DNA from: Harriotta raleighana
Taxonomy: Eukaryota
Direction of reading: 5' to 3'
DNA: 64,000 nucleotides
NCBI GenBank assembly: GCA_050575255.1
Contig: JBNZDD010013683.1
Location: forward strand, 2,021,455 to 2,085,454
The position numbers were made by a program, and so were the translations under genes. Below, in pieces: positions 58,501-61,500 of the stretch (position 1 is its first letter; each line of letters starts with the position of its first letter). Under the pieces are notes generated by a model. That model saw only the letters and a program-made list of their open reading frames with translations. It was not told where the DNA came from and made no database searches.

Positions 58501-61500
58501 GCGATAATAACCCTAGTAACTATTGATACTGCACTGGTTACTGTAACATTCTGTATGGCAAAGACATTTTTTAGTTCTCATTCGTTTTCTGTGCTTCATG
58601 ATTTTTGTTTCATGGGTTTAAATCTTTTATACCTGTGCTTGTCTATTTGTCTAAATCTACCTTCTGACTTCTTTCACTGCTATTCCTCGGAAAGAATAAT
58701 GTATCGAACCTATCGAATGTAAGTAGAACTCATGCTTGGGTTGCTGGTTGACAATACACTATTTTTGAACCAGCTTCAGTGACTATAATGGCAGTTCATC
58801 AACCTTATACTGTTTGCCTATTTGGTGAAAATTAAATTTTCTCTGAGAAAATGTTATGTTTGAATAGCTCCTAATGTTTACTTTTTTCTGAAAATGTTAA
58901 AATAGTAACAGATTCAATTTATTCTAATATAAACTCTTGTCCTGTATAAGAGCGAACGTCAGGAGAGCTGTGTTTATATTTGTTTCATTGATGGAAGCCT
59001 TCCTCCATCTAAAATGACTGAAATATTCTAGAATCAGCATGTTTCCATTATATTCACTATAGCTATTGTTTTTTCTGCTGCAGCAAAGAATTTATTTTAG
59101 AAATTTCTCCCAATACCTGCATGTCTTTCTTTCAGTCAAGCACGTGCCAATAACGTACATACGACTTCTGAAGCTAGTCATGTCATCCCAAAGGAGTTCC
59201 AGCTGGATCTTGATGAAATAGAAAATGATAACACTGTTGGTGGATGTGAATTGCCAGATCTAGTGCAGCACAAACTTGATGAACTCTATGAACCAGTTTG
59301 TATTCCAGAACCAAAGTGAGTAACCAATAGTTCATGATTTTGAAATCCTTTCATCCTGCCTGGATAAAATAATACTGGAAACGAACGACACAATTAACAA
59401 TGTCCGAATCCATTGATTGAAGGCAATGTAACTGCTCACTAAAATGCTCATAGCATGTTTGTGTTTACAATAGTGTGACATCTGTTCCTGACTTAACTTT
59501 GTTTTTAAAAATTGTGGTTGATAAAAATTGAGAAACTCACCTTCATGAACAAGATAGGGAATTTCATAATGTTTAGATGCTGCAAATAGTTCTGCAATTG
59601 GAATTCATTACATAATACAGTAAGATGTTCTACAAATGCAATGTTTTATTACCATTGAGATGTCTCCAAGCACTTCACAGGATATACTGTAAAGTGGAAT
59701 TACTGTATTATGGGTGGAACACAACAGCCAGTTGCGCGCAGCAACACTCCCCAAACAGCCATGGAGTGAGTCACAAATTTTAATTGGTGAATTATTGGCA
59801 GCGAACTGGAAGAAACACTTTTTTAAATTGTGCTGTAGGATCTATAACATCCACTTGAACAAGCAGATGGGACCCCAGTTTAACATGTTATGGGATGTGA
59901 ATTGTTTTTAAATACATAAATTTGCATAATTTAACTTTGTTTTGCAATTTCGCTGTTTTCAGAAATCGTGCAGTTTCTCCACATTTTGATGACCTGCATA
60001 GCAACACTGCATCTACGATCAATTTTGTTGTGTCACAGGTGGCAAGTAATGATATCAACACCAGCATTCAAGCTCTTGCCCAGGTAAGGAATGATGAGAA
60101 GCAGGAATGTGTTAAAGTGGCAGTGCAAGTCCGTACTTTACTTTTGTGCTCTTATTTTAAGATGGTGTTTGTAAGAAACGGTTGTGTATGCATTATTCAC
60201 ATCCATGATTTGAATTTGTTTTTCAGATTGATGAAGTTCTGCGTCAGGAGGATAAAGCTGAAGTTATGTCTGGTCATATTGATCAGTTGCTGGTTGCCAC
60301 AATTGTGCAACTTCGATTAATTAATAACACACACATGGCTGATGAAAAGTTTAACAGGAATGATATTCTGAAGCTTTATAGTTGTATCATTGGGGACATG
60401 ATTACGGTATGAACAACTTCTATTTCTGAGTTCAATATTCAGCTGTTATAAAAGCTAGAGAATAAAAACAATATTGTATGGTTGAAGTCAAAAATCAATG
60501 AACATTTGCATGTGTGAGAGTGATGAGTTGCACTCTGAATGGGACAGTAATGCAGTGACATGACTGTTTCATTCTGAACCCTGATGACTAAACCAATGTG
60601 CACAGGGGCCATCTGACTTGCACATTTAAATTATTTAATGCTTCATATTTCTCAATTTAGAGACTTCAGTTAAATTTTATAAATATTTTGAAAACACTAT
60701 GTAAAAGACAATTTTGGTTTCTAAGAAAACTTGCTTTTTTAAAAAAAAAATGGAACAGAGCCTATGATTGAATTTGTATTCAACATTCTTAGAGTTATGC
60801 CTTTGGGCTTCCTTCATTGCATTGGATATGTGGTAACTAACTTATTTTCAAAGCATAACAAACCTGGTGGGTAAATCTAGCATTTTGTGAGGTGCTTTGC
60901 TTTATCAATTAATTTTATATTTATGTTTTTCTGACACTACTGAGTAAGTTAACCAGGTGTCATCTTCACTCAGTTGTTTCAAATAGAAACTTTGGCTAAG
61001 GAGGCTTCTGTAGGAGTTTTGAAGGATCTCATGTATGGGTTAATTTTACTGATGCTGGACTCTCGCTTGGAAGACTTGGATGAGGGACCACAGGTTATTC
61101 GATCAGTCAATCTACTCATGGTGAAAGTTTTGGAAAATTCTGATCCAACCAACATCCTCAGGTAATGGAAAAGCTGGGCTTTCACTGGAAAAGAATTGTT
61201 TTGGTAATCTAAAGTTTATTTAAGCTGTTTCTTCTAGTCATGCAATTATTTATTGCCTTATTGTTTTTTCTTTGCAGTTCCTTGATTTTACTGCTGCAGG
61301 ATAGTCTTCTGGCTACAGCAAATAACTCGCCCAAGTTTTCAGAGCTTGTTATGAAGGTAACACTATCTGAATTCTTCTTGCACCAAATTTTCCAGATATG
61401 TGTATTTGCAAATTTAATGTTTCTCCACTGCCAATTTTAGCTTTTCAATTACCTGATTGATTTAACTAATTTGCGTATTGTTTGTCATCTCTTCATATTT

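Follow-up and report, generated by a model that had tools for sequence, protein, structure and literature searches.

A probable chimaera orthologue of the retina-enriched 24-nt microexon of CKAP5

The catalogued microexon and its counterpart in a cartilaginous fish

A 24-nt microexon of CKAP5 is already on record, and the available parts of several published datasets describe its inclusion. The human exon HsaEX0015457 is listed as a 24-nt, retina-enriched microexon with PSI values of 67.67 in retina, 13.5 in neural and 0.67 in other tissues, and its mouse counterpart MmuEX0011484, classed likewise, reaches 55.98, 16.66 and 0.72 (PMC9303857). On photoreceptor loss, mouse retinal PSI falls from 0.52–0.57 to 0.18–0.37, or from ~0.55 to ~0.28 (PMC4991804). 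Ectopic SRRM3 shifts the human exon by a dPSI of +25 and SRRM4 by +31 to +70 across seven lines (PMC9303857). In zebrafish, the 24-nt exon DreEX0021859 encodes kIMYRTYRi at the same junction of the printed cDNA (PMC9303857, PMC12626420). Its inclusion in eye RNA-seq data rises from 11% at 48 h to 28% at 72 h and 44% at 5 days, and at 5 dpf eye inclusion is 44.27 in the wild type versus 12.2 in srrm3 mutants, making Srrm3 the regulator demonstrated in vivo (PMC9303857). Whole-embryo RT-PCR between 12 and 72 h gave 0, 0, 0.09, 0.24 and 0.34 (PMC12626420); the last value compares with the 28% from eye RNA-seq at the same age, although the methods differ (PMC9303857). The mouse coordinates of MmuEX0011484 in PMC9303857 are those of the exon whose sequence PMC12626420 prints, and the human validation primers in PMC9303857, translated by eye, fall in the two exons flanking the microexon junction. 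The two reports place the zebrafish exon on different assemblies, and we matched their entries by gene and length. In addition, a bioRxiv study with 20-species vast-tools tables that include C. milii (10.64898/2026.09.05.749416) may already record the exon, and in the accessible portion of PMC8911335 CKAP5 appears solely as a circRNA.

We analyzed a 64,000-nt stretch of genomic DNA, here called the window, in which tblastn with a C. milii CKAP5 protein (P0121) gave 39 collinear matches on the plus strand. These place the coding exons of CKAP5 (ch-TOG/XMAP215), from residue 1 to ~1958, at 37540..63508, with the last exon or exons beyond the range matched by P0121. Pfam PF21041 (TOG) marks five stretches of that protein. 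Judged by these protein similarities, the DNA comes from a cartilaginous fish of chimaera-like kind, near the C. milii records and not identical to them. The 3′ part of LRP4 lies 5′ of CKAP5 on the same strand (~500–22900; best PDB match LRP4, E 3.8e-82), and a SNORD67 C/D-box snoRNA occupies the plus strand at 60513–60622 (71 bits, E 5e-14), within the CKAP5 intron that follows exon 60227–60409. We take upstream LRP4 and intronic SNORD67 to be the arrangement of the human CKAP5 locus as well, CKAP5 presumably being the host gene of human SNORD67.

The microexon sits on the plus strand at 58695..58718, between introns of 1138 nt (5′) and 417 nt (3′). Upstream, the constitutive exon 57387..57556 (+; donor GTATGT at 57557) encodes TOG5's final (HRF) helix and the start of the TOG5–TOG6 linker, with 94.6% identity to residues 1409–1464 of P0121. 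The constitutive exon 59136..59315 (+; donor GTGAGT at 59316) continues with the rest of the linker, including the conserved EFQLDLD motif, and over 60 aa its protein shares 95% identity with C. milii CKAP5, against 82% with shark CKAP5. The acceptor AG of the microexon lies at 58693–58694, reading ...GGAAAG before the exon, and a consensus GTAAGT donor follows at 58719..58724 (+). Together with the flanking split codons, the cassette encodes KIMYRTYRI in place of N; the skip form reads ...KL-N-QAR... and the inclusion form ...KL-KIMYRTYRI-QAR..., a net gain of eight residues with no stop. A first-pass annotation of this DNA had proposed just such a frame-preserving exon after TOG5, and its splice sites, frame and peptide were confirmed on the sequence.

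The chimaera exon agrees with the mouse and human exons in gene, junction, 24-nt length, phase and peptide, as the first-pass annotation had anticipated in suggesting orthology with a microexon catalogued in bony vertebrates. Compared by eye with the zebrafish and mouse sequences in the PMC12626420 supplement, it differs at 5 of 24 bases in each case, always synonymously, as selection acting on the peptide would produce. The flanking introns measure ~225 and 1013 nt in mouse versus 1138 and 417 nt in the window. The upstream UGC and UC tract found here are also scored as present for the mouse and zebrafish exons (PMC9303857). On gene, length and peptide, DreEX0021859 appears to be the equivalent exon. 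We therefore consider it highly probable that the window holds the chimaera orthologue of HsaEX0015457, MmuEX0011484 and DreEX0021859, an exon skipped by default and induced by SRRM3/4, as the best explanation of the locus as a whole. Tissue inclusion was measured in human and mouse, and for this fish we infer both inclusion and tissue pattern from orthology. The exon, its retina bias, its SRRM3/4 control and its age are already known and, with the first three published, the locus matters little as a discovery.

Conservation and age of the insert

The shape of the splice sites is by itself weak evidence for a microexon. The window contains 392 short candidates, and the 26 look-alikes printed from among them share the AG..GTRAG form, a length of 3–27 nt divisible by three and an upstream TGC; the CKAP5 microexon ranks first among them in pyrimidine fraction (0.73). 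It stands above chance because 58 of 224 database proteins carry exactly this peptide at exactly this junction. Among the others, two bear a close variant of the insert (Ascaphus and Denticeps), 157 have the single residue of the skip form, two contain a different insert that is probably gene-model read-through and five were unclassed. Skip and inclusion forms thus both exist among the proteins of relatives, and the microexon is a real optional exon of the CKAP5 TOG5–TOG6 linker. A search built on the insert favors identical matches, as in the insert-bearing query that returned 56 carriers among 62 proteins, 54 of them identical. Queries free of the insert recovered carriers in six of the 120 matches listed (of 274) and in three of 60, and all nine were identical letter for letter. 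The Denticeps clupeoides protein (P0223) has an insert longer by two residues at its start, as a 6-nt upstream shift of the acceptor would give.

Carriers of the insert comprise sharks, rays, gar, teleosts, frogs, reptiles, birds, a monotreme, a marsupial and placentals. Among 16 cartilaginous-fish CKAP5 proteins, four include it (Pristis pectinata X2, Hemitrygon akajei X4, Heterodontus francisci X2 and Chiloscyllium plagiosum X1), with an insert identical to that of the window and nearly identical flanks. These carriers are elasmobranchs, whereas the window lies nearer to C. milii, a holocephalan; the three proteins retrieved from that species are all without the exon, leaving the holocephalan evidence genomic only. 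Those three proteins, together with the 26 look-alikes, would fit a remnant that holocephalans conserve yet leave silent, or an AG..GT pseudo-exon arisen by chance. Against this, change across jawed vertebrates is synonymous only, with all eight internal residues and the two split codons preserved, the splice signals (consensus donor, UGC, long AG-free zone) are undamaged, and four shark and ray gene models include the exon; we regard a remnant or pseudo-exon as very improbable.

With the holocephalan copy from the window, whose splice signals are intact, the exon is present in both branches of cartilaginous fishes as well as in bony vertebrates. By these comparisons it is at least as old as the jawed vertebrates. 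The proposal of a jawed-vertebrate age was thus borne out and, because the shark and ray gene models include the exon, was already on record. Bearing on an origin before jawed vertebrates, the named matches of the protein searches included no lamprey or hagfish protein. Among 150 distant representatives, insert patterns appeared in one, a vertebrate-like protein at 68% identity.

Splicing signals around the microexon

SRRM3/4-dependent (eMIC) neural microexons are frame-preserving cassettes of 3–27 nt with a strong donor, a distant pyrimidine tract and a UC tract plus UGC, and the window exon shares each of these features. Its UGC lies at 58678..58680 (+), at −17, 15 nt before the acceptor AG and with a UC-rich tract ahead, matching the layout given in the available text of 10.1101/2024.09.17.613571. 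A candidate branch point, CTGAC at 58664–58668 (−31), was assigned by pattern match only and places the UGC between branch point and AG. The pyrimidine tract falls within a 118-nt AG-free zone (58575..58692, +; previous AG at 58573) that exceeds those of all 39 other CKAP5 acceptors, an approximately picked comparison set with a median of 35 nt and a maximum of 101 nt. The UGC alone is weak evidence, a UGC at comparable distance being present in 10 of these 39 acceptors and in 26% of 19-nt windows. The SRRM4-type signature read from the UGC in the initial annotation holds: the UGC is where it was reported, UGC, UC tract and AG-free zone fit the SRRM3/4 layout, and the human and zebrafish orthologues respond to SRRM3/4 (PMC9303857). 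A weak, distant acceptor of this kind would be skipped by default in this fish, and SRRM3/4 acting at the UGC would promote inclusion in photoreceptors and, more weakly, in other neurons.

The same annotation had added NOVA and RBFOX to this code, a part that the motif statistics do not support. Of the TCAT clusters described on both sides of the exon, the upstream one exists as three TCAT (YCAY), possible NOVA sites at 58578..58613 (+; −117, −99 and −85). Their density of three YCAY within 45 nt is not above chance (P=0.13, 500 dinucleotide shuffles) and is matched by 11% of 135-nt windows of the gene. Downstream there is no cluster near the donor: over the first 200 nt of the intron no 45-nt span holds more than one YCAY (2 observed versus 2.05 expected), and the full 417 nt hold six (5.99 expected). 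The TGCATG proposed as an RBFOX enhancer is present at 59118..59123 (+). It lies +400 nt from the microexon and 12 nt before the next exon, within the acceptor tract of that exon, and it too is not above chance (P=0.15; 18% of 417-nt gene windows hold one); a role for it is doubtful. A second downstream GCATG lies at +319. The GCATG pair (P=0.03–0.04) and upstream TCAT (P=0.046) were the best two of 40 motif tests, uncorrected.

Published retina data suggest a different use of such motifs. In retina microexons, NOVA and RBFOX motifs lie upstream and are expected to repress, and both proteins are reported to be very low in photoreceptors (PMC9303857). If the three upstream TCATs are active, repression in non-photoreceptor neurons would be their likelier role. 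Within the eMIC programme, the CKAP5 exon falls in the retina-biased subset in mammals, and downstream NOVA/RBFOX enhancers of the pan-neural type are not evident in the window. The expectation of a neuron-enriched isoform stands insofar as the exon is an SRRM4-type neural microexon, whereas in mammals the enrichment is retinal, with PSI values of 56–68 in retina versus 13–17 in other neural tissue (PMC9303857).

These data bear on whether the exon could instead be pan-neuronal, driven jointly by SRRM4, NOVA and RBFOX enhancers and free of any special retina bias in this lineage. Such regulation would agree with its listing as a neurodevelopmental microexon by a mouse brain-development screen and a zebrafish embryo time course (PMC12626420), with the persistence of about half of mouse retinal inclusion without photoreceptors (PMC4991804) and with the two downstream GCATG (P=0.04, uncorrected). 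The exon is also not among the zebrafish retina microexons: under the gene name CKAP5 it does not appear in the chicken or zebrafish retina-microexon sheets of PMC9303857, DreEX0021859 is not in the zebrafish file, and the zebrafish exon is not classed as retina-specific. Given this and the whole-embryo RT-PCR value of 0.34 at 72 h, retina bias may be weak in fishes, with a broader neural pattern there. The non-retinal neural PSI of just 13.5 in human and 16.7 in mouse (PMC9303857), the scarcity of NOVA and RBFOX in photoreceptors, the unenriched YCAY with no downstream cluster and the placement of TGCATG in the acceptor of another exon argue against joint pan-neuronal control, as does the matching zebrafish intron end, where no GCATG was seen by eye in the ~286 nt visible in PMC12626420. 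We judge a pan-neuronal exon under this joint code rather unlikely and retain SRRM3/4-induced inclusion of a retina-biased exon as the preferred reading.

Two further candidates were considered, Musashi control and RNA structure. For Musashi, a possible site is the UAG at +6 that overlaps the donor (58719..58724), and it is not above chance; downstream TAG occurs three times in 200 nt versus 2.55 expected, the human exon showed a dPSI of 0 and 0 in two lines with MSI1 (PMC9303857), and no Ckap5 splicing row was found in the available PMC9509328 supplements. RNA structure was rejected: the sequence around the microexon did not differ from shuffled sequence in fold energy (z=0.01), and no Rfam family was found there.

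The insert in the TOG5–TOG6 linker

The neighboring domains of ch-TOG have described functions. Its last TOG5 helix and basic patches contact the microtubule lattice and tubulin tails: Xenopus K1444, M1448, R1452 and R1455 of that helix contact alpha-tubulin, and tubulin tails lie near the TOG5 basic patches. TOG6 binds gamma-tubulin, and several weak sites in the C-terminal region mediate binding to gamma-TuRC (all as given in the available parts of PMC13376574). In AlphaFold models of a pair of frog isoforms distinguished solely by the insert, TOG5 ends at ~279 and TOG6 starts at ~394. The insert, at residues 316–324, has a pLDDT of 32–35 with no helix or other secondary structure, and the skip form shows the same degree of disorder; the alignments comprised 73 rows, few of them insert-bearing, and low pLDDT is itself a prediction. 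The insert thus falls in a predicted disordered linker, ~40 residues beyond TOG5's lattice-binding helix. A folded or helical insert was considered, and AlphaFold predicts none. A position inside TOG5 was likewise rejected: the PMC9303857 supplement marks a partial CLASP_N overlap, yet in the models the insertion site falls outside TOG5.

With the insert, the stretch from the TOG5 helix to EFQLDLD grows from 61 to 69 residues. In rays, linker K+R rises from 10 to 13 and D+E stays at 5. Aromatic, nearly invariant residues make up a quarter of the insert. In 61 insert-bearing proteins, the flanking K, L, Q and R are conserved at 96%, 98%, 100% and 100%, respectively, versus 27–80% at neighboring linker positions. 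Plain electrostatic tuning would not require the invariant Tyr, Met and Ile.

For the protein, the insert would leave the TOG folds unchanged and add a basic, aromatic short motif ~40 residues after the lattice-binding helix. Its most likely effect would be an extra contact with acidic tubulin tails, leading to longer lattice residence on the stable microtubules that post-mitotic cells have; alternatively, a partner-binding motif would be gained or lost. We hold this account of the protein effect tentatively, at slightly less than even confidence. Given the invariant Tyr, Met and Ile, a specific partner motif comes close in likelihood to tail contact with longer lattice residence, and both are inference.

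The partner alternative can be stated for the same exon and the same regulation: by splitting a conserved K-L-N-Q-x-R, the insert would create a new short linear motif, or a phospho-site, recognized by a partner in photoreceptors or neurons, and would act independently of tubulin tails. The near-invariance of the insert, flanks conserved at 96–100% while their neighbors drift, a similar SKLSQLR stretch near the mouse C-terminus and the several weak gamma-TuRC sites of the C-terminal region (PMC13376574) all suit such a switch. Against it, a helix is not predicted (the helical hydrophobic moment is a modest 0.33), and no paper printing the peptide string was found in the openly accessible literature. 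Nor did that literature yield a functional study of this exon. We regard a binding switch as a plausible possibility that falls short of probable.

A more specific proposal is that the nine residues, which vary little between chimaeras and apes, form a binding motif that turns ch-TOG, an essential polymerase of mitosis, into a photoreceptor or neuron form, with a re-tuned hand-over from TOG5 on the lattice to TOG6 and gamma-TuRC, or with a ciliary partner recruited, at the basal body and axoneme. We consider this distinctly unlikely. If it were true, the outer-segment failure of srrm3 mutants would be partly due to loss of the exon, and the exon would be a hidden site for retinal-disease variants. 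In a zebrafish microexon screen, most of 45 other single microexon deletions caused little phenotype in larvae, and the listed ckap5 allele is truncating and not a clean exon deletion (available parts of PMC12626420). The near-invariant peptide lies in a drifting linker between domains that drive lattice binding and gamma-TuRC-dependent nucleation (PMC13376574). Because of this position, and because the sole ckap5 allele found is truncating, the CKAP5 insert is a reasonable, ordinary candidate for isoform comparison.

Several minor features of the locus were also recorded. Two other short AG..GTRAG candidates with a UGC occur inside CKAP5 introns at 60162–60170 and 63885–63899 (pyrimidine fraction 0.68–0.70); an insert matching 60162–60170 was not seen in the CKAP5 proteins aligned. 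The constitutive-looking acceptor at 45150 combines a 101-nt AG-free zone with a nearby TGC. At C. milii residue 1139, in the TOG4–TOG5 linker, proteins of bird, Xenopus, gecko and gar have an insert of 23–37 aa; all eight aligned cartilaginous-fish proteins are without it, and tblastn gave no clear match in intron 54160–54830. Copies of a ~300-bp repeat, 70–87% alike, lie at 6623–6925, 12340–12569, 31606–31901, 41011–41312, 49799–50113 and 56119–56377, one of which overlaps a tRNA match at 41250–41322 (−), consistent with a tRNA-derived SINE. Finally, the ray proteins P0122 and P0130 are without 21 residues at C. milii position 1906 (window ~63201–63350), suggesting an alternative acceptor, and the mouse CKAP5 isoforms of 2011 and 2032 aa differ by the same length.
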